This document shows, one piece after another, positions 1 to 11,421 of a stretch of DNA of 11,421 nt. The stretch's first letter is position 1; each line of letters opens with the position of its first letter. This DNA is from Candidatus Heimdallarchaeota archaeon. GTDB taxonomy: Archaea > Asgardarchaeota > Heimdallarchaeia > Hodarchaeales > Hodarchaeaceae. A model generated the notes under the pieces. The model was given only the letters and a program-made list of their open reading frames with translations, was not told the DNA's origin and made no database searches. The DNA is taken from positions 20,995 to 32,415 of the forward strand of contig JBHLSH010000043.1 in NCBI GenBank assembly GCA_048881705.1, in the 5' to 3' direction. Position numbers and translations under genes: made by a program.

Positions 1-909
1 CTAAGGCCGCAGGCTGTCCAGCTGGCGGAGATGAGTCAACTCATGCGCAGCAAAGTAGCTAACCTGCTGTTTTAGTGTTACCCGGCCAAACTCCTCATGT
101 TCCCCACTGCGCATCCAGTCCTTCCTTGAAATTCCTTCCAACATGGTAATGGTTTCATCTCTTGAGTTTTGATATTGTTGAAAGATGTCGGCTGTTGTGG
201 TTTGTTTGCCTTCCTCTCGAGTGGCCCAATCAAAAACCGCCTCGGCAGTCAGGATCGGATTGTCCTGTTCTAACAAGAGAGTTAAACGATGACTCAGCAC
301 ACCCTGGGCATCCCGAAGGTGCGTTACCACTTGCTGGATAGACCAGCTCCCTTCTGTAGGCGTTTTCGTAAGAATTTCCTCATCTAGACCTGCCATGAGC
401 ATGCTCACCTTTTTTGGGGTTTCACGAAGGTTTTTCATGGCCTCTAGGGTTTCAAACTCGTTGAGATAATATATGGGCAAAAAATGTTGAAAGGTGTGCG
501 GCCAGGCCCCACAGCCTGGGCATTTAGCGGATGGCATGCCAAGATTACTTTGCCCACATCGACGACAGACGTACGGGTCAGGGATTTCGGTGATAAAAGG
601 TAATCGGTTTTCTTTCATTGCATTTTTTCCAGTTTCCAAGGCATCAATAAAATGGGGGTTAACCTTGTGTTTGCCTAGGATTTCTTTCGCCCTTTCAAGT
701 TCTTCATACAGCTCATTATTGCTTTTGGTCAGTCCACGTTGAAATACCGCCTGACCTGTAATTGCAGTAACGCTGGCACGTAATACCTTTGCTACGTTGA
801 GCTGACCTTTACTTTCCAGACTGGAGGCTAACGCCACCAGATGAAGAAGGTCCGTCCCCAATCTATCATCCTGCATGGTTCTGATTCCATCCTTAATTCG
901 ATCAAGCAA
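1..909 (-). CDS. DinB family (DinB_2/YfiT-like) metalloprotein with N-terminal rubrerythrin/rubredoxin-like module
   Basis: Complete ORF with TAG at 1-3 and TTG at 909 (alternative ATG at 876). The C-terminal half has DinB hallmarks WSIQQVVTH197LRD and AAH289ELTH293LRQL (His triad). The middle has YVCRRCG-x10-CPGCGA..F (C115/C118/C130/C133). Confidence 0.85.
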   Translation of the reverse strand: MLDRIKDGIRTMQDDRLGTDLLHLVALASSLESKGQLNVAKVLRASVTAITGQAVFQRGLTKSNNELYEELERAKEILGKHKVNPHFIDALETGKNAMKENRLPFITEIPDPYVCRRCGQSNLGMPSAKCPGCGAWPHTFQHFLPIYYLNEFETLEAMKNLRETPKKVSMLMAGLDEEILTKTPTEGSWSIQQVVTHLRDAQGVLSHRLTLLLEQDNPILTAEAVFDWATREEGKQTTTADIFQQYQNSRDETITMLEGISRKDWMRSGEHEEFGRVTLKQQVSYFAAHELTHLRQLDSLRP

Positions 910-1092
910 TCAGCATCAGTAAAATAACCAGATTATCAAAAGATGTTCAGTAAATTCTTCGTAAATCGTTTTTTTACCCATATTGGGAGCTAGATTACTC
1001 GATAAGTCACTTTTGATTGATTTGAGCCGATTATAGGAGGGTTTCGAGGGATGACATTGAATATTCAAAATATCAAGGTTCAAGACAGAGTC

Positions 1093-1854
1093 TTATGGTT
1101 TGAACTTCTTAAGATCTTTTGCAGTGTCTTTATGAAGTGATTCCAGCTTTTTATTGGCGCTATGGAGTACCTTGAAGCTTTTTTCTATTTTATCAAGTTT
1201 TTTATTGATTTCATCTATGCTCGATTCCAGTTTCTTTATATCAGAATCAGATTTCTTTTGATGAGCGTTAATCTTATTGAAATGCGACTCTACTTGTTTG
1301 AATTGATCCTTGATTTCCTCTAGAGGCACCAGTGTTTCAGAATTATGCTGTACACCTTTAATAGATAGTTTGGGCGGGACAGGAGCAGGAAATTGTTCTA
1401 TCATAGGTTCAGGACGAGCTGCTGGAGTCAGCGGAGGGGTGGGCTGTATCTTCTGCTCTACTCGGGGAGGCGAAGGAGTGGGCGGAGGAGCGTATGTTCT
1501 TTTCTGTTCGACACGAGGCGGAGCAGGAGTCGGTGGTGGTCGTTCTAGAGGGGCAGGTTTCGCAGGTACTGGTTCTGGAATCGGAGTGGATGGGGGGGTA
1601 TAAACTGGTCTAGTTGGAGGAGGTGAGACTGGCGGAGTTTTGGTTGGAGCCTCGGGTGGTCGATAAGGAGGAGAATAGGATTGTTCTGACCCATCTGATG
1701 GTGGCGGGGGTTCTCCAAACGATTCCTGGAGATCTAAAGGAATAATCGGTTTTATTTCATCCTCTTCACGATCTGTGAGTGCCTGTTCACTCCCACAATG
1801 GGGACAAGGGAAATTCATAACATAGTTCCGACATTTCTTACATACTGGACTCAA
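1093..1854 (-). CDS. Zn-ribbon / proline-rich / coiled-coil protein (hypothetical adaptor)
   Basis: The longest ORF is 1093..1965, but the preferred start is TTG at 1854 just before CKKC-x8-CPHC, because the ATG at 1965 sits upstream of a TATA-like TTTATAT at 1955-1961. About 130 aa of Pro-rich linker follow, then a ~75-aa heptad coiled coil (LEEIKDQF...LKKFKP). Confidence 0.8.
   Translation of the reverse strand: MSPVCKKCRNYVMNFPCPHCGSEQALTDREEDEIKPIIPLDLQESFGEPPPPSDGSEQSYSPPYRPPEAPTKTPPVSPPPTRPVYTPPSTPIPEPVPAKPAPLERPPPTPAPPRVEQKRTYAPPPTPSPPRVEQKIQPTPPLTPAARPEPMIEQFPAPVPPKLSIKGVQHNSETLVPLEEIKDQFKQVESHFNKINAHQKKSDSDIKKLESSIDEINKKLDKIEKSFKVLHSANKKLESLHKDTAKDLKKFKP
1451..1539 (-). repeat. Diverged 51-bp-period tandem duplication encoding PPPTP(A/S)PPRVEQK twice
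   Basis: 1451-1488 ttctgctctactcggggaggcgaaggagtgggcggagg aligns without gaps to 1502-1539 ttctgttcgacacgaggcggagcaggagtcggtggtgg. The differences are almost all synonymous. Confidence 0.85.
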
Positions 1855-2006
1855 GATGAGCCAACTCCATTTATTTTGACCATTGCCACTTATTTTAATT
1901 CCATCACATATATGTCTTTTACCGTTTGTTTCATCCTGTAAAAAGCGTGCTCTGATATAAACCATAGTGAATGGTAAGGAACCCCTCTATTTCTAACCAT
2001 CTGAGA

Positions 2007-3050
2007 TTAGTAGGTCAGAAATTTAATTTGAGTCGCCTTAAAATTATTTGGCCTGCTGACAGTAGAATAGGAAACAGGAATGAAAGAAACTCTCTTATTA
2101 ATTAATGCAGAAATGTCCTTACAATACCATGTGAGGCATTCGGGGAAGAAAATACAACTTAACCCGTTGCTTGTAATGATCCCGAACTTTCTTTTGGCAT
2201 CAAACTTCTTGATTTTGCCAATCTTCCTCTTCTTTTCATTTCTCACGATCTTTCTAAGGTTCAGCAGTGATTCGGTTATTTTCTCATCATTGGAAACTGC
2301 TAAGCCTTTTCTGACATAAATGTCCATTAACGTCCAATTTGGACGTTCCTTTGAATTTTCATATTCTGCCAAATTATAATACGCAATCGTTAGAGCTTCA
2401 TTATTGGTTGAGAAGTGTTGTCCATGAATTCTGATATCTGCGATGACACGCCGCAAATAACGGGCTCCAATCCTCTTATCCCCCCTTTGAAACATCCTGA
2501 GTCCAATGTCTAAACAAAGTTTTTTATGGAGTCGGTGAATTCGTTTATCATAAACACCTAGATCTACGGCTAGTAACACAGAATTAAAGGCTTTATTCAC
2601 GTTTGCTCTCCATGATCTATAGTGTTTCTTATGGTACTCATCAGATGCCCAATCGATATAGTTGTCTGTAATATAGAAAAGAATATCCATCTTTCGGATT
2701 CCTGCAATGTCTGATTCTGACTCGACAATCCCTCTGAATATTTCTTCTGCTTCGGGATACTTTTTCCGAAAGGTCATGACTCTTCCAAGTTCTTGGAGAA
2801 CCGGAGTATTGCGCGGTTCAATTTCTAGTGCGTTTCTAAGGTATTTTTCCGCAGCTGGAAGGTCATCCTGTAATTTCTTAACAACCCCCCATGCATACCA
2901 GACATGGAAATTTGATGGTTTAGAGTCTGCCGCTTGCTGAAGCAGCTTGTCAATTGTCAGGATGTTTTCCTGCTTGGTATAAAGGATGGTTTTTATTCTA
3001 TTAACACTTTTTAGTTCTTCTAGAAAACTAACATCCTGCAAATTATTCAC
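2007..3050 (-). CDS. Tetratricopeptide repeat protein with C-terminal cold-shock (OB-fold)-like domain
   Basis: GTG start. TPR pair FHVWYAWGVVKKLQDDLPAAEKYLRNALEIEPRN / TPVLQELGRVMTFRKKYPEAEEIFRGIV. The C-terminal GKIKKFDAKRKFGIITSNG..IFF....L.NKRVSF......KATQI resembles the CSD consensus GxVKWFxxxKGFGFI...VFVH...V.F...A.nV. Confidence 0.8.
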   Translation of the reverse strand: MNNLQDVSFLEELKSVNRIKTILYTKQENILTIDKLLQQAADSKPSNFHVWYAWGVVKKLQDDLPAAEKYLRNALEIEPRNTPVLQELGRVMTFRKKYPEAEEIFRGIVESESDIAGIRKMDILFYITDNYIDWASDEYHKKHYRSWRANVNKAFNSVLLAVDLGVYDKRIHRLHKKLCLDIGLRMFQRGDKRIGARYLRRVIADIRIHGQHFSTNNEALTIAYYNLAEYENSKERPNWTLMDIYVRKGLAVSNDEKITESLLNLRKIVRNEKKRKIGKIKKFDAKRKFGIITSNGLSCIFFPECLTWYCKDISALINKRVSFIPVSYSTVSRPNNFKATQIKFLTY

Positions 3051-3079
3051 GTGAGCAAGAAAGTAAGTAAATCGGGACC

Positions 3080-3086
3080 TATTTAA
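3080..3086 (-). promoter_or_regulatory. Putative archaeal TATA box (TTAAATA) for the TPR-CSD gene
   Basis: Minus-strand TTAAATA about 30 nt upstream of GTG 3050. Confidence 0.5.
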
Positions 3087-3226
3087 GCGATACTTTCGAG
3101 TTTATTGAAAACGGGAATGTAAGGGCGCATTTCCTTAAAAAGCTTTTCAACCATCACTTCTCTATTCATAAGGATTTCGATCACAGCGCCTTTTGTTTGG
3201 ATCTAATGCCTACGAATTTGTAAACA

Positions 3227-3233
3227 TTAAATA
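3227..3233 (+). promoter_or_regulatory. Putative archaeal TATA box (TTAAATA) for the 94-aa ORF
   Basis: TTAAATA preceded by A-rich gtaaaca, about 25 nt before TTG 3258, which is consistent with a leaderless transcript. Confidence 0.5.
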
Positions 3234-3257
3234 AGTCAGAATGTAGATGAAATTAGT

Positions 3258-3542
3258 TTGTTTTCCAAGAAAGATGTACCCAACTATCCACAGAATAGGG
3301 AAGAATGGCAGAACGCAATATACGCTGGGATCGGATTAAGCAAACCGGAAGGGGAGACAAGATATCAATCACAGGAATTTCCTTATTCAGATCTCGAAAA
3401 ATGGATTCAGAGGTCTTATAGTAGAGGATTTCATCCCGATTTTGTTCCGGCATTACTCAGAAATATCAAGGGATTAGTAGCTTGGGTTTATGGTGGAAGG
3501 AACGAGCCAAACTGGTCGCAAGCTGATAAAGAGACTTCCTAA
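3258..3542 (+). CDS. Small hypothetical protein (94 aa)
   Basis: TTG start with a correctly spaced TATA box. It fills the gap between flanking genes without overlap and has protein-like, Trp/Tyr-rich composition. No family recognised. Confidence 0.7.
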   Translation: MFSKKDVPNYPQNREEWQNAIYAGIGLSKPEGETRYQSQEFPYSDLEKWIQRSYSRGFHPDFVPALLRNIKGLVAWVYGGRNEPNWSQADKETS

Positions 3543-3625
3543 GTGTAAAAACCGAGCCATATCCCCTCCATATCAAATTTTCAAACCCAGTTTTCATTCT
3601 GCGTTAGGTTCGTACCGCTGCGGAT

Positions 3626-4414
3626 TCACAAATCTTGTCTCTTGGAATACACGATTACTATCATCATGATAGAGATAATAAACAGAAGATGGAAGCCCTC
3701 TGTGATCTCCGATGTTTTGGTACTATCTGTCATAGACATTGAAGTAGTCGAAGTGGTCGAAAGTTCCGGCCCCATTGAAGGATTGGCTATTTTAACATTA
3801 TATTTCGTCAAGGCAAGAATGGGATTTCCTTGATAGGTTGTTCCCCCTGCCTTAATGCTATCATAATGCCAGACCGTTATATCAATTGAATCATTTATGG
3901 TGAGGCCGAGGTCCGCCAATAGGTAATAATATTCGATGATGCGCTTTGTTGTCAGATCGATGGCAATTGAATCCTGGTATTCAGCCACAGATTCTGGTAC
4001 CTCGATGTTGTTGTAAGGGGAAAGAAGATCGAGGCCATTAACAATGGCTGTGAATCCCCAATGTGGCAGCGTATCGTAAATGATTTGGGCCATTAAGATG
4101 TAGATGGCACCATCTGGGGTGCGAATGGTCATATTTGCCAAGAGTGAATTCCAATAATCCAGTGGAGCTTCATAATCGACTCGAACGAAGAGATGCGATC
4201 CATTCGCGGTAATAAAGACGGAATTAATGTCTAGGAAGTAAGTTTCGTTCACCATAGGTTCCCTAATAATCGGGTCTAGACCCGCCCAGTCATCCAGATT
4301 TCCGTCAATGATAATCGATGTCCCTTGCACGCCTCTTACATTACCTGCAGTCAGAAAACCCAAGAAAATCACTATTACAACAAAAATTCTCTTTTTATTG
4401 GGTTTTGGGATCAT
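3626..4414 (-). CDS. Secreted, membrane-anchored protein with CBM9/DOMON-like beta-sandwich and PGF-CTERM-like (EGF) C-terminal anchor
   Basis: Signal peptide MIPKPNKKRIFVVIVIFLGFLTAGNVRG. IIIDGNLDDW followed by DINSVFITANGSHLFVRV is typical of CBM9/DOMON-like domains. It ends in a Ser/Thr linker, TEGF, a hydrophobic helix and a KRQDL tail. Confidence 0.75.
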   Translation of the reverse strand: MIPKPNKKRIFVVIVIFLGFLTAGNVRGVQGTSIIIDGNLDDWAGLDPIIREPMVNETYFLDINSVFITANGSHLFVRVDYEAPLDYWNSLLANMTIRTPDGAIYILMAQIIYDTLPHWGFTAIVNGLDLLSPYNNIEVPESVAEYQDSIAIDLTTKRIIEYYYLLADLGLTINDSIDITVWHYDSIKAGGTTYQGNPILALTKYNVKIANPSMGPELSTTSTTSMSMTDSTKTSEITEGFHLLFIISIMMIVIVYSKRQDL

Positions 4415-4451
4415 TTGTGGATCTCACGGGTCTTTCTCAATGCCATCGAAC

Positions 4452-4459
4452 TATATAAA
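4452..4459 (-). promoter_or_regulatory. Putative TATA box (TTTATATA) for the 262-aa surface protein gene
   Basis: Minus-strand TTTATATA about 40 nt upstream of ATG 4414. Confidence 0.5.
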
Positions 4460-4622
4460 ATTTTAGAGCGAGCGACTTCCGAACCTCCCTCGCTCAATCA
4501 GTCCTAGAAAACCACCAGTTTAAATCTTAAAAGTCATTAGCAGGCACTAGATATCCCTTTCTCTTCTCTCTCTCCCCCATTGCTTGTGATTATTCCTATT
4601 ATCTCATTCAATACATTATAAC

Positions 4623-5723
4623 CTATAAATTACTCAGATAGCGTCCCCACACTCGCAATACCTGATTTTTATGTTCCTCCCGCAGCAGATTGAGATTTTC
4701 CAGATCTTTATCCACGAATAACTCCAGATTTTCACTGCCTTGCTTAAAATACGTATCCAACAGTATTTCTCCCGATAACTGGTTCAGCTGGTCCTCATTA
4801 TACTGAAGAATTTCTTCTATAATCAACTCCTTAATCCCAGCAGCCAGGTCTTTCATGACTTCATATCGGGCATCGAAGAATTGTTGCTGAAAATGGCGTT
4901 TTAACAGGAGATCAATCATGAAAGCTCGATCGATGGCCATGAAATACGTTTCTCCATAAATAAACCGTAATCTCCGAATCCTAATCGATCCGAATGTGAT
5001 GTTTTTTGGTTTTGATTTAAAGAGAACCTCGATCAGGCTGATTATGGCCGAGAAATATCCCCCGAATAGCACTTCATCTTGCATATTGTAAGAAAAGGGG
5101 ATATCCCCCCCATCTAAATGCGAGATCAAACACCAACTTGATGGGGCATAATAGCTTTGGATATCTGCTTGTTTTCTCAGATATACGTGTAATAACAAAC
5201 ATTCTTCAAACGTTAAAGCCGAAAAATTGCACCCCGACCTGCCTGCAATCGTATTAATTGACCCATCAGTGCCATATTCCTGGTTCAGGTCTAGGATGAT
5301 ATCCCTAAACAATTGAATGGCTTGTTCTTTTTCTTCCAAAGTGACATTCTCTGTATCAATACCGGCCCCATATAGGATTGAAGCTTGTCCTACCAAGACA
5401 GCATTCATAATTTCTTTAATATCGTTTGGAATTTCGGCTTCAGTCATTATAAGCCGAAGGGTCAGGATCGGATCACTGATAATAAAGAAAAACTTGTCGT
5501 ATAACGAGACAATAAAAATTTCTCCGGCTTTAAATCCTGAATGCTTTTCTAAATCAAAGGTTATATTTGCAATACCGCCTTCCCCAAATAAATCGTTTCC
5601 CAACTTTCCTAAACCAATGAAAAAACTGAACACCTGCTCCTGAAACTTTTCTACGTCAGAAACTCCATAAGACCATTTAATGGAGTTTTCCTCAACAAAT
5701 ATCGCCCAATTTTCATCAAGCAT
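4623..5723 (-). CDS. Tandem longin-like domain protein (Asgard-type)
   Basis: ATG start. Two internally alignable units at aa ~5-120 and ~197-305. The second has DEVLFGGYFSAIISLIEVLFKSKPKNITFG..RLRFIYGETYFMAID, the typical Asgard longin alpha1-beta3-beta5 pattern. Confidence 0.7.
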   Translation of the reverse strand: MLDENWAIFVEENSIKWSYGVSDVEKFQEQVFSFFIGLGKLGNDLFGEGGIANITFDLEKHSGFKAGEIFIVSLYDKFFFIISDPILTLRLIMTEAEIPNDIKEIMNAVLVGQASILYGAGIDTENVTLEEKEQAIQLFRDIILDLNQEYGTDGSINTIAGRSGCNFSALTFEECLLLHVYLRKQADIQSYYAPSSWCLISHLDGGDIPFSYNMQDEVLFGGYFSAIISLIEVLFKSKPKNITFGSIRIRRLRFIYGETYFMAIDRAFMIDLLLKRHFQQQFFDARYEVMKDLAAGIKELIIEEILQYNEDQLNQLSGEILLDTYFKQGSENLELFVDKDLENLNLLREEHKNQVLRVWGRYLSNL

Positions 5724-5858
5724 AATCTTAAAGCGGCCTCTCTGCCATTTTTTGGTTCTGATATAATAGGCTAATTACTTGGGGTGATCCATTAGATATT
5801 TAAGAATGTCCTGATCGTTTCGCGACTCAAAAATCTCCGTTTCTCATTTTTCCTAGGC

Positions 5859-6002
5859 CTACTTACTTTGTGGCTTTTTTTTTACTGATAATATCTTCTT
5901 AATATCATTTACATCGTTAGGCATCGCAATTCTTACCCATACCCATCGACCATCACGTAATTGTCGACTTTCTTGTACTACATTGAATGTTCGAGAACTT
6001 AA
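5859..6002 (-). pseudogene. C-terminal remnant of a DUF3788-like gene
   Basis: A start-less frame reads LSSRTFNVVQESRQLRDGRWVWVRIAMPNDVNDIKKILSVKKKPQSK*. This resembles the DUF3788 C-terminus as I recall it (DGkWlw..v.....DIkkll.iKrkP). In-frame TGA at 6003-6005 blocks extension. Confidence 0.55.
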
Positions 6003-6082
6003 TCAACAGACATCAGACTGGCTTGTTTCCCCCACACGCCTTCAATTGTGCGTGATTTGTTCTCGTTCCAAACGGCAGGATT

Positions 6083-7066
6083 TTATTCAGCTGTTTCTTC
6101 AATTACATTGATGACTACTTTCCCTGCGGTATGGCCCAATTCATAATATCTATGTGCATCCGCAGTTTCATCTAGCGAGAACGATTTATCGATCACTGAT
6201 TTGATTTTCCCTTCATCGATGAGCTTGGCCAGAAACTCAAGATCCTCAGTGCTCGTTTTGGTTATCAGAAATCCCATTTTCTTCTTGCGAAACCGATTCC
6301 CTAAAATCTGCAAAAAGAACCGTACCATTCTCATTCTCGGACTGCCGGCTTGGAGGAAAATTCCTTCTTCTTTTAACGCGTTTTTCCATCTCCATTGAGG
6401 AGATTTTCCTACAGTATCAAAAATCAGATCATATTTCTCTGGCATTTTGGTGAAATCTTCTTTTGTGTAATCTATTACTCTATCTGCCCCAAGATTTTCC
6501 ACTAGGCCTCTATTTTTCCCGCTGCAAACCGCTGTTACTGTCACATCGAAGGTTTTTGCATATTGAAGAGCATAGGTGCCAACACCACCCGATGCACCGT
6601 AAATCAGAACGTCTTGGCCATCCTGAATATTTCCGCGGTCTCGCAAAAACTGCAATGCAGTTAACGCCGCCAAAGGCACCGCGGCCGCTTCGGCATAGCT
6701 CATGGTAGTCGGCTTAATCACAACTCCTCGTTCAGATACCTTTGCATATTCCGCACAGGTTCCAGTTCTTGCAAATCCATAAACCTGATCCCCAACCTTG
6801 AACTTCGTGATATCCTTCCCAATTTTTACGATTTCGCCTGCCACATCACTTCCCATGATCTTTTTTTTCGGTCGTCTAATTCCGCTTTCCAAGCGCGCGA
6901 GCCCAAACAGCGCCTTTATTCCACTTCTCCCTGCGGTATCCGGAGTGTTCACCGAGGATGCATATACCTTGGCCAGCATCTCATCGTCGGCCAATATTGG
7001 TAGATTAATTTCTTTTATTTCAATAACATCAGGGGGCCCATATCTTTCAATTACAGCTGCTTTCAT
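6083..7066 (-). CDS. NAD(P)-dependent medium-chain dehydrogenase/reductase (zinc-independent, quinone oxidoreductase-like)
   Basis: MKAAVIERYGPPDVIE N-terminus, ASSVNTPD, GSDVAGEIVKIG, EAAAVPLAALTALQ, Rossmann GASGGVG, DLIFDTVG and C-terminal GHTAGKVVI. The Cys/His catalytic-Zn ligands of classical ADHs are absent. Confidence 0.95.
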   Translation of the reverse strand: MKAAVIERYGPPDVIEIKEINLPILADDEMLAKVYASSVNTPDTAGRSGIKALFGLARLESGIRRPKKKIMGSDVAGEIVKIGKDITKFKVGDQVYGFARTGTCAEYAKVSERGVVIKPTTMSYAEAAAVPLAALTALQFLRDRGNIQDGQDVLIYGASGGVGTYALQYAKTFDVTVTAVCSGKNRGLVENLGADRVIDYTKEDFTKMPEKYDLIFDTVGKSPQWRWKNALKEEGIFLQAGSPRMRMVRFFLQILGNRFRKKKMGFLITKTSTEDLEFLAKLIDEGKIKSVIDKSFSLDETADAHRYYELGHTAGKVVINVIEETAE

Positions 7067-7169
7067 TATCCGTGTTGTTCCTAGTTCTACCGAACCAATG
7101 TGTTCATAATCGGTTTTTCTCTACTGAGTAGATTATCCCAGAGAAGATACTCTAGTACTATGTATTCGC

Positions 7170-7343
7170 TTGCTATTCAAATTTAACTATCCAATCTTCG
7201 TACTTTTTCTAGGTGGACTCAATCCCGTAATCAACAAGGATAATATCCAAACTTTAGCAGCCGATGCAAAAACTGCTGCAAAGCTGGCTGAAATGAACAC
7301 GGAACTAATTAAAACGAAACAGAAACCTTACATTACTGTTTGA
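7170..7343 (+). CDS. Possible small protein or gene remnant (57 aa, below the ORF-track cutoff)
   Basis: The frame is open 7128-7343. From TTG 7170 it reads LLFKFNYPIFVLFLGGLNPVINKDNIQTLAADAKTAAKLAEMNTELIKTKQKPYITV*. The stop ends 1 nt before the convergent subtilase stop. Confidence 0.3.
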   Translation: MLFKFNYPIFVLFLGGLNPVINKDNIQTLAADAKTAAKLAEMNTELIKTKQKPYITV

Positions 7344-7344
7344 G

Positions 7345-7425
7345 TCATTTCCTTCGCCGATCTCGGCCGATTACTATTGCACTAATCACTAAAATCCCCG
7401 TAATAATCGCAAAGGTAAACCCAGG
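7345..7425 (-). other. PGF-CTERM archaeosortase (ArtA-type) sorting signal
   Basis: PGF + FTFAIITGILVISAIVIG + RDRRRK* directly after a Thr-rich linker. Confidence 0.85.
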
Positions 7426-9786
7426 AGTAAGCGTGCTTGTAGGAGTTGTCGTTGTCGTAGTCGTCGTCGTAGAAGTAGAAGGGGATGTGGTCGTAGATGT
7501 GGGAGGGGGTGTTGTTGTGGGGGGAGTCGTCGTGGCAGATGTTGAACTGGGTGCAGTGGTGGTGGTGGTTGTGGTGGTGGTTGTAGATGTTATCACATAA
7601 ATGGTGGGGTCATCCATCACGATGTCATACGAATCATTCGCCCAAATTTTCACGTAAATCGTCGAGGCGCTTACCGTGGGAATTGTGGCATCCCAAATTC
7701 CCTTGGTGACTGGCCCACTTCGACTGGCTTTTAGCGTCATCCACGTCACTCCCAGATCTGTTGAATAATTATAGAGGACAGTTGAAACACCTGAGATGTC
7801 CGATACATTGGCCATCAGGAGAATCGACGAGCCACTTGTGAACGTAGTCGGAATCGAGGTCCATACCACTCGGGGTGGCATCCCGTTCAGCACCAGATTG
7901 GCAACATCGAGCTTTCCATACCCAAACACCTGATTCGGTACATTTCCCAGGCTCAAAACGAACCCATCTTGATCGGTTGTCGTGCGTAACAGCGCAAGGA
8001 TTTGGTCGTAAGTAAGTTTAGGATTCATTTGCAACAGTAAGGCAATGGCACCTGCGACCATGGGCGTGGCCATACTTGTTCCCGATTTATGTTCAAAGTA
8101 GTAATACAGAGGGAAGATAGGTAGTTGTTCATCTTGGCTTTTAGTCGAAAACAGATATTCGCCCGGCGCGGACAGGTACGGCCGTAGGTCACCATCTATT
8201 CTCGGCCCTCGACTACTAAAGCGAGTAATGTTCCCGAGGATTTGGATAAAGGGCAGGTTAGGATCTTGAGCCGAAATGTGGGCCCCCACGGCTATGGCCG
8301 AGTCGGATGTGGCAGGAACCGTAATCGTATAATTGGGAGAGATTTGAAGTGGATTGTTAAAACGTGTGAACGCCCAGTCATTGTCAATCATGCTGTTGGA
8401 GAGGTAAAAATGGTACTCTTGAGCAGTTGCATTTCTGAAAACAACCGAATGTCCACTATCATTCATACCCAAAATGGCTAATGGATTATTACCAGCAAAA
8501 GTTTTTGTGTCATGATCTTGAAATTGACCTGACAGCTTTTGAATTCGAATCTGTTGCTTCATAGTCCCCCTTGTCCCATTTATTTGACGTCCAGTGACTA
8601 GGTACGAGTCTGCTACGAAATTTGCGTCAGTAAATTGGAATGTCGAACCATCTTTTGGAACAGAGGCGATGACAGTATTGTCATGCATCAGCAGAGAGAA
8701 AGTCGCATCATGATGCGGGTACCGCCACAGAACCGTAAATCGGATTTCATCAATGGGAGGATCATCAGTGGTCCAATCAAACTCCCAATCAACATTATTT
8801 AGCGTGTTAGCCGTAAATGTGTCCTGCGCGTGAGTATCTTTATCCGCATAATTTCCTGCGGCAACCACCACTATGGCCCCTTGTTGTTTCGCCCAATCGA
8901 TTTTTTGATCCAAGAGATCACTTCCATCCCGATACAACCCATCAAGGGTCGCGTTATCTAAGAATGAAAAAGAGAGCGAGATAATATCGGCCCCCTCTTT
9001 CACCGCCCAATCGATTGCACTCAGGACCTCGCTTTCAATATAGCCTCCAGTTGTGTCATTTACCACTTTGGCTACGAGAAGTGTGGCGTTCGGGGCCACT
9101 CCGGTAAACCGCGTTAAATTGGGATACCCCCCTGCCAGGATTCCGGCTACATGTGTACCATGCCCAATTGTATCGTTTTCGGTATTGATAACTGGGCTGG
9201 TTAGGTTTATACCTCGAATGAATAGGTTACCCCTATCCCAGATTTTCTCAATTTTTGGTTCTGTTAGAGGGAGCAATTTATCGCTAGCAGTTATTGTATT
9301 AGATTGGTCGGTATCATTGAATAAAAGCATCGTTTCCCCCGAATCTACCTGCCCATTGGCATTGCTATCAATATACAAGAAATCGAGCCCCTCCTCGAAG
9401 ACATCAGGATACGCAAAAACCGTACCATTTGGAAACGCCAATTCTTCCCGGGTGAAATTCAGGCCTTCATTGCTGTCCATGATATTATCTTTATCTAAAT
9501 CAATGTACGGATCATTTGGCGGCGATATCTTCACGGTGTACAGGGATTTATCATACGTAGATGAAGGGAAATAAAAACTGGGATGTTGCCAGTCTATTCC
9601 CGAATCTATAACTGCTACTCGTATATTGGTTCCCCATATTGGCGCTCCATTCGTATCAGTCAGATCCCAGGTGGACTCTGTGTTCGCATCCCTGGTGGCA
9701 TTATTCAAACCATTGAAATACGCGAATCCCATCGTCGAAATCATCAAAACAATAAGTAGAAGTTCCCATCGTGCTTTTTGATTCAC
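7345..9786 (-). CDS. Subtilisin-family (S8) serine protease, cell-surface anchored via PGF-CTERM
   Basis: Catalytic triad VAVID61SGID, GH209GTHVAGI and GTS571MATP, oxyanion AAGN312. N-terminal signal/TM segment, C-terminal Ig-like domain, Thr-rich linker and TPGF-TM-RDRRRK. GTG start with GGAAGG at 9793-9798. Confidence 0.95.
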   Translation of the reverse strand: MNQKARWELLLIVLMISTMGFAYFNGLNNATRDANTESTWDLTDTNGAPIWGTNIRVAVIDSGIDWQHPSFYFPSSTYDKSLYTVKISPPNDPYIDLDKDNIMDSNEGLNFTREELAFPNGTVFAYPDVFEEGLDFLYIDSNANGQVDSGETMLLFNDTDQSNTITASDKLLPLTEPKIEKIWDRGNLFIRGINLTSPVINTENDTIGHGTHVAGILAGGYPNLTRFTGVAPNATLLVAKVVNDTTGGYIESEVLSAIDWAVKEGADIISLSFSFLDNATLDGLYRDGSDLLDQKIDWAKQQGAIVVVAAGNYADKDTHAQDTFTANTLNNVDWEFDWTTDDPPIDEIRFTVLWRYPHHDATFSLLMHDNTVIASVPKDGSTFQFTDANFVADSYLVTGRQINGTRGTMKQQIRIQKLSGQFQDHDTKTFAGNNPLAILGMNDSGHSVVFRNATAQEYHFYLSNSMIDNDWAFTRFNNPLQISPNYTITVPATSDSAIAVGAHISAQDPNLPFIQILGNITRFSSRGPRIDGDLRPYLSAPGEYLFSTKSQDEQLPIFPLYYYFEHKSGTSMATPMVAGAIALLLQMNPKLTYDQILALLRTTTDQDGFVLSLGNVPNQVFGYGKLDVANLVLNGMPPRVVWTSIPTTFTSGSSILLMANVSDISGVSTVLYNYSTDLGVTWMTLKASRSGPVTKGIWDATIPTVSASTIYVKIWANDSYDIVMDDPTIYVITSTTTTTTTTTTAPSSTSATTTPPTTTPPPTSTTTSPSTSTTTTTTTTTPTSTLTPGFTFAIITGILVISAIVIGRDRRRK
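7440..7592 (-). repeat. Low-complexity Thr/Pro/Ser linker (ACN-codon repeats)
   Basis: Plus-strand ggt/gtt/gtc triplet runs encode TSTTTTTTTTTAPSSTSATTTPPTTTPPPTSTTTSPSTSTTTTTTTTTPT, a likely O-glycosylated spacer. Confidence 0.85.
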
Positions 9787-10116: not shown

Positions 10117-11421
10117 CTATTGAGTTCTTTTGAGATTTCCTTGGCAGTAGGGGCACACCACTATACCTACTTTGCCAGCACTAGTGTAACAATCTTCGCA
10201 GATCATTCGAGAACAAGTACTACACTCATAAGCTGAATCTGTGGCAGGATGCTGTTCATTGTCCAACTGACAGAAGAAAGCTTTGGGTGCGATAGGAGAC
10301 GCAAACTCTTCGATCTTTCTCGATCTCCCTCTTCCGGCCTGAATGCCCAATACAACTAGCCCCATACTGCCGAATATCAGGAGAACCGCTATCCACTCCA
10401 AAGGAATATCAAAAAGAGAACTTCCCTGTATAGTGGTTGTGGTACTGTCCTGAAAACTCTTGGCTTCGATTGAATCCCAGTTTAATGCGGCAGGAGCCGG
10501 TTCCAAGTCCTGGCGGGATCGATGAATGTACAGTGCAAGAAAGGTGGGATTACTCCTTTGAAAAACAATTGATGGATCAATATTTAGATCTGTCCAAGTC
10601 TCCGAGACTGGGGTGAACACTCTGATTGAAGTGTTTGTAATAATTATCGACAATTTGCCCTGTGTCACCACTGGATCCGATCTAAATGCCATTGGAAGGA
10701 TTTGATAGGTACCTCCAGTCACATCAAAATAAAAGGCCCGATGCCCTGTTTTGTGATCATTTGCGGAACCAGATGAATCAAGTAACTCCAATAGGAATAA
10801 GTTTTCCAGATTTTCCCCCAATATGAGTAAATTCATGGTTCCCATAAATGAATACGGGTTAGATACTGAGGTTGGATTAAAATTCACGGTTGATTCGATT
10901 AACAGATCATCCCGATTGGTAGGAAGTTGGCGGTAAAACACGATATCTCGTGGCGTAATGGTAGATGCGGGAGGATTCCACCAATTACTATCAGGGGTGA
11001 AAACGCCGCCAGAAGCCGTTAAACTATCTGTTAGTCCAGGAATGGCTAATTCCGAATAATCGTAACTGGTTCCGTCCGCATTGATCCAGTCTGATATATC
11101 TGAACAATCTTCAAACCAATCCGAAATGTTATTGCTCGAGGATCTAACAACTTGGAGCAGATTTCCATTTGTCTCACTGACATGTACGAATCCTGGCAAA
11201 TTTATCGCAATATCCAGAGACGCATCAAATTGACCTTGTTTCGTTCCAGTTGGCTCCCAATTGGTTACAACCAACTCGGATGCGAAATTCTGCTGGTTCT
11301 GGTTCTGAACGGTTTGATTCGTTCCGATCTTAAGACTTAGGAAAGGGAAAAGATGTGGAACCGTCGCAATAATGACAAAAAAGACTATCAGCAATAAGAA
11401 GAAGGCTCTGGGACTTCTCCT
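10117..11421 (-). CDS. Single-pass membrane protein with extracellular beta-rich domain and cytoplasmic C-terminal RING-like zinc finger (5'-truncated)
   Basis: The frame is open to the window edge (RRSPRAFFLLLIVFFVIIATV...), so the true start is probably outside the window. It has an N-terminal hydrophobic segment, a ~300-aa beta-rich ectodomain, TM WIAVLLIFGSMGLVVLGI (10342-10395), basic GRGRSRK, then C-x2-D-x3-H-x8-C-x2-C-x4-C-x2-C-x11-C-x2-C. Confidence 0.85.
   Translation of the reverse strand, partial: RRSPRAFFLLLIVFFVIIATVPHLFPFLSLKIGTNQTVQNQNQQNFASELVVTNWEPTGTKQGQFDASLDIAINLPGFVHVSETNGNLLQVVRSSSNNISDWFEDCSDISDWINADGTSYDYSELAIPGLTDSLTASGGVFTPDSNWWNPPASTITPRDIVFYRQLPTNRDDLLIESTVNFNPTSVSNPYSFMGTMNLLILGENLENLFLLELLDSSGSANDHKTGHRAFYFDVTGGTYQILPMAFRSDPVVTQGKLSIIITNTSIRVFTPVSETWTDLNIDPSIVFQRSNPTFLALYIHRSRQDLEPAPAALNWDSIEAKSFQDSTTTTIQGSSLFDIPLEWIAVLLIFGSMGLVVLGIQAGRGRSRKIEEFASPIAPKAFFCQLDNEQHPATDSAYECSTCSRMICEDCYTSAGKVGIVVCPYCQGNLKRTQ

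Follow-up and report, generated by a model that had tools for sequence, protein, structure and literature searches.

The minus-strand reading frame at positions 10117–11421 of the window (the whole 11,421-nt stretch of DNA analysed here) encodes a protein whose order of parts was confirmed as a signal, an ectodomain with a concanavalin A (ConA)-like/L-type-lectin fold, one transmembrane (TM) helix and a cross-brace, RING-like zinc finger. We regard it as a good candidate, short of proof, for a prokaryotic ubiquitin ligase with the shape of a receptor. On the predicted models, the finger would be a membrane E2 recruiter, that is, an E3 in the broad sense, a reading to which we assign a probability of roughly 0.55. 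Membrane-bound RING ligases that tag membrane proteins with ubiquitin are a hallmark of eukaryotes. The host lineage has been proposed to contain the closest relatives of eukaryotes, and Asgard ubiquitin and ESCRT systems have been reconstituted with small soluble RINGs only; to our knowledge, Asgard membrane-side ligases are unknown. The new elements are the lectin-fold ectodomain, the co-distribution of the finger with one E2 subtype and a non-classical predicted interface. The literature covered, which mostly excludes subscription titles, contained no account of this finger or of Asgard TM-RING proteins, and none was found by term look-ups in PMC10936438, PMC9192718, PMC12962969, PMC13037920 and bioRxiv 10.1101/2020.10.19.343400.

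The visible frame (P0001) comprises 434 aa, and its 5′ end is open, running off the end of the host contig (C43). The last 50 nt of the window (11372–11421; 5′ end of the gene on the minus strand) overlap exactly with positions 253–302 of another contig (C150), an overlap that is unique within the host genome. Beyond it, C150 extends the frame by seven codons, up to an in-frame ATG. With this start codon, and given the inferred join of the two contigs, the protein would probably comprise 441 aa, and its first helix is probably a signal. The 252 bases of C150 past the overlap (C150:1–252) have a GC content of 55% and resemble a chimeric contig end, and a fusion of a PD-(D/E)XK nuclease with a HerA-like ATPase is encoded upstream on the same contig (L126, C150:538–2805).

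Hydropathy placed an N-terminal hydrophobic segment, a putative signal peptide or signal anchor, at aa 7–25 after an Arg-rich n-region (11347–11403, minus strand), and a TM helix at aa 344–362 (10336–10392, minus strand). The 318 aa between the two helices are acidic (36 D/E versus 15 K/R) and contain all three N-x-S/T sequons. The second helix is followed by the basic stop-transfer sequence GRGRSRK (aa 363–369; 10315–10335, minus strand); no K/R occurs in the 15 residues preceding this helix and four occur in the 15 residues following it, which by the positive-inside rule would place the tail in the cytoplasm. Type I topology with a cytoplasmic finger is supported by three sequence features that agree, namely the hydropathy profile, the charge bias and the position of the sequons. 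The architecture read from the letters in the original prediction, namely a signal or TM segment, an ectodomain and a single TM helix with positive-inside residues leading to a finger inside the cell, was accordingly recovered.

The ectodomain core (aa 92–335; 10417–11148, minus strand) was assigned by a predicted model and structure searches. The model, computed from six sequences, was an all-β sandwich with a pLDDT of 65 and a pTM of 0.70, with the first 50 residues poorly modelled. Foldseek searches with this model returned 217 matches at E ≤ 0.001, among which carbohydrate-binding, GH16 and lectin domains ranked highest. In VIA-align, the best match was the CBM2 module of phage J-1 (Z 14.5, rmsd 4.0, 203 residues aligned); ERGIC-53 (Z 12.4, rmsd 4.9, 191 aligned) and VIP36 (Z 12.0, rmsd 3.8, 185 aligned), as well as galectins and GH16, also matched. 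The Atlas's own model and structure search indicated the same fold, and in these predictions the fold of the ectodomain is ConA-like. Pfam gave no PA hit for the receptor at E ≤ 1, and a PA ectodomain was ruled out by the positive assignment of the domain to an all-β ConA-like sandwich. The fold suggests that the ectodomain probably binds a glycan or glycoprotein, and enzymatic or adhesion roles are also possible. The L-type lectin cargo receptors ERGIC-53, VIP36 and Emp47 (the last with Z 11.8) likewise display a ConA-like domain outside, carried by one TM helix, with only 4–8% identity to the ectodomain and scores level with those of GH16, galectin and CBM folds; however, their C-termini are short sorting tails, whereas the present protein ends in a zinc finger. 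Sequence relatives of the ectodomain are few (approximately 50% identity over residues 92–335) and either end in fn3 and a C-terminal anchor or lack the finger. For example, a protein of one other genome (G010, L009:1039–3075) contains the ectodomain as a tandem pair, followed by fn3 and an anchor.

The finger spans C384–C426 (10144–10272, minus strand) and reads C384-x2-D387-x12-C400-x2-C403-x4-C408-x2-C411-x11-C423-P-Y-C426, ending eight residues before the stop codon. The cysteine motif was thus exactly as originally described, and a motif of this spacing was found in 7 reading frames of the host genome but in none of 20 shuffles, so that it is not a product of chance. Across 97 aligned domains, seven cysteines were invariant, whereas ligand 2 (position 387) varied, 65% having Asp there and 29% Cys. 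The second ligand had been flagged as atypical; Asp387 is indeed present here, but it proved to be a family trait, in which Asp goes together with a His four residues on. This residue, His391 (10249–10251, minus strand), is a probable substitute zinc ligand that accompanies Asp387 in 60/64 domains and Cys387 in 3/29. The pattern suggests, at the level of the sequence, that the second zinc-ligand site is filled by His391 or Asp387. As proof, this covariation (60/4 versus 3/26, with approximately 10 changes on the best tree) was set aside, as only two independent pairs fell on well-supported branches and it was not significant.

The predicted model of the finger (pLDDT 90) comprises hairpins, a helix and the terminal CPxC, and a terminal CPxC following a helix is a RING-like character. 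In a profile search against solved structures, the C4C4 finger of plant cellulose synthase (CesA) ranked first (1weo, E 3e-5), followed by the RINGs of TRAF3, RNF4, Bre1, MAT1 and TRIM proteins, and comparison of the finger profile with the six Trp-type RINGs of the host gave a probability of 86.6 (E 4.5e-6), with the C-x2-C-x4 middle in common. The finger of TFIIH p44/Ssl1, put forward as a close match in the original prediction, was far down (E 0.008), well below CesA and several RING E3s, and was rejected as the nearest relative. In structural comparison, the archaeal ribosomal protein aS34, ZZ domains and RING E3s were level at Z 5–6.8, with aS34 (Z 6.8, rmsd 3.1, 55 aligned) and the Nbr1 ZZ domain (Z 6.1, rmsd 1.7, 45 aligned) among them; archaeal aS34 has been described as resembling RING domains (PMC11698992). 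Foldseek with the finger found zero matches at E ≤ 0.001, the best match in the Atlas feature search was below 0.85, and in Pfam neither the receptor nor the finger had a hit above the curated cut-off, the weak zf-UDP and zf-RING_4 matches falling below it, so that Pfam supplied no family name. FYVE, PHD and C1 domains were absent from the best 50 structural matches, an absence that is not itself evidence. The R(R/K)HHCR patch of FYVE fingers is missing, STCSRMIC standing in its place with only R405 conserved, and where ZZ domains have a C-terminal His pair as last ligands, the finger has the invariant CPxC. Structural scores do not clearly set the finger apart from ZZ, B-box and FYVE folds, but the sequence profile favours RING. 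Taken together, the model and the profile matches support the RING-like cross-brace fold that had been proposed.

Alternatively, the finger might be a docking or oligomerisation module without ligase function, of the CesA, p44 or aS34 type, or a ZZ-type peptide reader, and would then mark surface proteins for sorting or assembly by tying them to a common cytoplasmic partner, for example an ESCRT-II-like or SPFH protein. We consider this unlikely, although several observations agree with it: aS34 and ZZ domains are the best structural matches, level with RING E3s, the best sequence match is the CesA finger, which is not known as an E3, and the finger lacks both the Trp and the linchpin of classical RINGs. 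The terminal CPxC, which is RING-like and differs from the His pair of ZZ domains, argues against it, as do the genomic linkage and the predicted E2 complex described below.

The finger belongs to a family. At E ≤ 0.001, 109 database representatives (clustered at 50% identity) matched the tail. Counting the proteins with this tail gave 13 matches in the host genome, and genomes of the lineage hold 4–15 each. The finger was C-terminal in 93 of 108 proteins; 38 of the 69 longer proteins had a TM helix before it, and 29 of these had more K/R after the helix than before. The ectodomains of these proteins differ and include a YCF48/BNR propeller, LVIVD repeats and a two-pass protein with a weak APD1-4_N match, among others, and soluble members are fused to PCI/winged-helix domains. 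The finger is therefore a mobile, lineage-specific module that occurs on many unrelated ectodomains. The closest paralogue (66% identity; L031:2281–3948, host contig C1), which is conserved through the genus, has a Gly/Arg-rich N-terminus, two TM helices and a double zinc ribbon, and several of its orthologues show weak APD1-4_N matches below the cut-off.

Searches of the protein collection, among proteins of similar or greater length, and of 41 relatives yielded no orthologue with the same layout as the receptor. The receptor gene was also not found at the syntenic place in the closest relative (G001), with respect to which the stretch holding the gene is variable. The fusion of lectin fold and finger looks recent, because no second case of it was found and the segment that holds it is missing from the closest relative. 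Such a singleton could have arisen of late through shuffling of domains, its outer and inner parts not being coupled by selection, or it could be a chimera made by the assembly close to the end of a contig; the variable region, the 7.5% contamination of the host genome bin, and ectodomain relatives that end in fn3 and an anchor or lack the finger would all fit. We nevertheless consider this very improbable. The joint between ectodomain and finger is a single unbroken frame, lies approximately 1 kb inside the contig and contains no DNA repeat, and the GC level across it stays at 0.43–0.47 without a step. All family-conserved residues of the finger are intact, and grafts of the finger are common in the host genus. 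In addition, positions 1–7275 of the window are 87–95% identical to the closest relative, which indicates that the contig belongs to the host lineage.

The presence of a ubiquitin system in the host, which had been expected for an Asgard archaeon, was borne out. The host genome contains four UBC-family matches (three with the active Cys), three ubiquitin matches, three E1-like genes and a JAMM gene, and UBC-family and ubiquitin matches were absent from all 14 control genomes. The UBC-family and ubiquitin matches lie in three clusters with the E1-like genes. The cluster on contig C15 includes a UEV-Vps23 protein, a Rab-like GTPase, a Yip1-like protein and ubiquitin, an arrangement in agreement with that described for Hodarchaeia (bioRxiv 10.1101/2023.07.25.550441); for the host, an Asgard archaeon, a position in the Hodarchaeales is the most likely. 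A second cluster (L029, C57:6960–11763) holds a multi-pass membrane Trp-type RING, a JAMM protein, an E2 and an E1, together with two ubiquitin-like proteins ending in AG. Further Trp-type RINGs of the host are encoded at C1:73590–74609, C27:23121–24491 and C77:12603–15563; two of these proteins have predicted TM helices and one RING ends a 986-aa protein. The receptor gene itself has no ubiquitin genes as neighbours.

The link between the finger and ubiquitin came from the third kit, which we refer to as the C72 type. Its gene order in the genus consists of JAMM and E2 genes on one strand and, on the other, a zinc-finger/UBC-like gene, ubiquitin, E1 and a PCI/winged-helix protein with two fingers. 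The two-finger gene was downstream of ubiquitin and E1 on the same strand in 8/8 mapped loci, starting approximately 0.5 kb after E1. The possibility that this operon finger protein is the UFL1-like E3 of Asgard clusters was dismissed, the only PF09743 match of the host being on another contig. In 17 of 23 genomes the finger gene of the kit was located within 6 kb of the C72-type E2; in the others, the two were on separate contigs or far apart on a scaffold, or the E2 was not found. Among 301 Asgard genomes, 23 carried the finger and 21 the C72-type E2, all 21 being within those 23, and neither was found in the remaining 278; the thresholds behind these counts were self-chosen, with 21 scored candidates per genome. 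The two finger genomes without the E2 were 74% and 80% complete. One genome (G022) has both genes while its sister (G023) has neither, and a distant genome (G102) has the finger with matching ubiquitin, E1 and E2 at 57, 41 and 52% identity, on contigs that are short and could be misbinned. The co-distribution amounts to about two independent events, because genomes of kin are not independent. In this distant genome, the ubiquitin–E1–E2 trio and one finger protein (L135 and L136, on C139 and C134) may reflect transfer, old retention or misbinning. These observations showed that the finger module is linked to one particular Ub–E1–E2–JAMM system.

The exact co-distribution with one Ub–E1–E2 module, including that in the distant genome, counts against a docking or sorting role for the finger. 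However, SPFH and ESCRT-II-like genes border the end of the gene row of the kit in all loci mapped, so that the operon finger gene abuts them, and in G022 the finger gene follows SPFH/ESCRT-II-like genes on the same strand while the E2 is on another contig; both arrangements are compatible with such a role.

The E2 of this kit (L087:1459–1998, host contig C72:19850–20389), whose orthologues are 62–96% identical, carries inserted segments before and after the catalytic Cys and does not have the Ser-Pro of loop 7. Co-prediction of the finger with this E2, one of the three active-site E2s of the host (the others being at C15:23747–24214 and C57:9011–9568), gave a score of 0.63, whereas the highest-scoring of three controls reached 0.00. 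The pass mark applied is reached by 58/80 solved complexes and 2/110 mismatched pairs, counts that are approximate for our own alignments. At least 97% of contacts were common to the runs, and the partner pLDDT was at least 89. On the finger, the predicted interface lies on the RING face for E2, comprises residues 386–388, 414–422, 424–425 and 427 and is centred on Val418-Gly419 (10165–10170, minus strand), a motif conserved in the family (60% and 75%, respectively). The predicted E2 contacts (residues 9, 12–13, 15–17, 20–22, 28–30, 33 and 35) fall on helix 1 (in its second half), on the loop behind it and on the first hairpin, and loop 4 (65–67) and loop 7 (112–115), which are part of the classical RING site, lie outside the interface. 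This patch fits the edge of the E2 'backside' surface as defined previously (PMC4822130).

The passing score may reflect the predictor's memory of solved complexes, because RING–E2 is a textbook pair. The non-textbook pose is harder to attribute to such memory, but it may also be wrong. The predicted patch presumably overlaps the E1-binding site, and the pose could be that of a tether or of a regulator in competition with E1, or could be mistaken. The passing E2 complex centred on the Val-Gly motif and the conservation of hydrophobic residues on the E2 face both speak against a docking module. That conservation is strong: among the 97 domains, a hydrophobic residue occupies the position two after the first Cys in 92%, Pro follows the seventh Cys in 92%, and the next residue is hydrophobic in 90%.

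In the receptor, L386, P424 and Y425 occupy these classical E2-contact positions, which raises the alternative that the finger is a classical RING E3 working with another E2 of the host; the C15-type and C57-type E2s retain the classical loops. The features for which the finger departs from a classical RING have to be weighed here. The central-helix position four after ligand 6 is Ala415 in the receptor and is hydrophobic in 58% of the family but Trp in 0/97, and the linchpin position after the last Cys is Gln427 and is unconserved, with Arg in 6%. In the RING E3 of Caldiarchaeum (srfp), the one archaeal RING E3 to have been reconstituted, the matching Ile, Trp and Arg matter, and W58A and R69A impair its function (PMC5654768). 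The Gln after the last Cys had been raised as an objection to ligase activity, but it carries little weight: the residue following the last Cys in the six Trp-type RINGs of the host is H, Q, K, N, Q and Q, and some eukaryotic E3–E2 pairs do not need the linchpin, such as Doa10–Ubc6, which works with a poor one (PMC7667886). Both points would also suit a classical RING. Even so, we judge that alternative improbable, considering that the C15-type E2 has a class-wide distribution (22/24 genomes), which the finger does not share, that the six Trp-type RINGs already suit those E2s, and that the finger family as a whole lacks the Trp and leaves the linchpin position unconstrained. The proposed link to ubiquitylation was thus upheld by gene order, co-distribution and the predicted E2 complex, but not by a Trp or a conserved linchpin. 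If the finger is an E2 recruiter, it would be an E3 by recruitment, more likely via a non-classical E2 surface than through activation by a Trp and linchpin.

Comparison with known systems places the protein between families. The PA-TM-RING ligases (RNF13, GRAIL/RNF128 and RNF43/ZNRF3) likewise combine a signal, an outer domain, one TM helix and a cytoplasmic RING-fold finger, and the RING of RNF13 (5zbu) was among the structural matches of the finger (Z 4.5, rmsd 3.0, 53 aligned). The resemblance suggested originally therefore extends to the type I layout with a cytoplasmic finger but not to the ectodomain, which is ConA/lectin-like rather than PA, and the finger differs in lacking the Trp and the Arg linchpin. 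The narrow Asgard range points to an assembly independent of the PA-TM-RING ligases. The idea of a precursor of RNF43/ZNRF3-type ligases finds no support, and the protein can be called no more than an analogue, because nearly all finger matches were found in one Asgard family and the fusion in a single genome. Compared with RING-H2 domains, C403 and C408 are invariant Cys instead of His at ligands 4 and 5. The zf-UDP finger of CesA (1weo) has the same ligand spacing (x2-x12..15-x2-x4-x2-x11-x2) and was aligned end to end. The C4C4 RINGs of CNOT4, p44 and CesA have eight Cys, whereas Asp387 is present here and Asp/His in two thirds of the family, and the finger sits in a membrane-receptor setting, unlike those fingers. 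CNOT4 is the established E3 among these three, and the structure of a Not4–Ubc4 complex is available (PMC4431670). The receptor falls outside the PA-TM-RING, RING-H2 and strict C4C4 families, although it may work like a TM-RING ligase.

The small archaeal RING E3s, from Caldiarchaeum (srfp, PMC5654768) and Helarchaea (bioRxiv 10.1101/2023.07.25.550441), share the Ub–E1–E2–JAMM setting. The published proteins are, however, small and soluble and possess the Ile/Trp/Arg triad, whereas the receptor finger lacks the Trp, has Cys where srfp and the Asgard Trp-type RINGs have the His ligands of the middle pair, and goes with a different E2 subtype, one lacking the loop-7 Ser-Pro. The backside E2 recruiters gp78 (G2BR, PMC4822130) and Cue1 likewise work from a membrane anchor and contact the E2 at helix 1 (in its C-terminal half), at the loop behind this helix and at the first strands; these are helices outside a RING, whereas here a RING-fold surface is predicted to make the contact.

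In the reading that we prefer, in which the finger recruits E2 at the membrane, the lectin-fold domain would bind a glycan or glycoprotein outside the cell, while the finger, which would contain two zinc ions, would bind the C72-type E2, as in the predicted complex, and hold it at the membrane. The receptor itself or a bound neighbour would then be tagged and might be handed to the ESCRT or proteasome machinery. As a module, the finger would plug many surface proteins into one Ub–E1–E2–JAMM system. A more far-reaching version, which we offer as speculative and doubtful, is that Hodarchaeales possess a private receptor–ubiquitin layer, in which one dedicated Ub–E1–E2 kit would serve about a dozen surface and soluble proteins by way of a common RING-fold adaptor that docks on a non-classical surface of the E2, and this gene would encode a glycan-sensing, lectin-type receptor ligase that labels membrane cargo for sorting by ESCRT. 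In any case, the lineage seems to build receptor-shaped candidates by placing one finger on many ectodomains; the single receptor gene is strain-specific, and the value lies in the finger family. Since a specific E2, ubiquitin, E1 and interface residues can be named, the idea is testable with four small recombinant proteins. If it is true, recruitment of an E2 by a RING fold through the edge of helix 1 and the backside would constitute a new E2-binding mode.

The other genes noticed in the window are all on the minus strand. A subtilase (7345–9786; Peptidase_S8, E 5e-51), which has a linker rich in Thr and, at its C-terminus, an anchor starting with PGF, is also missing from the syntenic place in the closest relative. 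The product of 3626–4414 is a secreted protein that carries a C-terminal anchor and has no match in Pfam, and the 366-aa product of 4623–5723, which the genus conserves, belongs to no known family. The frame at 2007–3050 encodes a TPR protein whose C-terminus looks cold-shock/OB-like by eye. A DinB_2 family protein (1–909) contains an internal CxxC...CxxC pair, and the protein encoded at 1093–1965 combines a small CxxC pair, a long Pro-rich linker and a C-terminal coiled coil, with both ends conserved in relatives.
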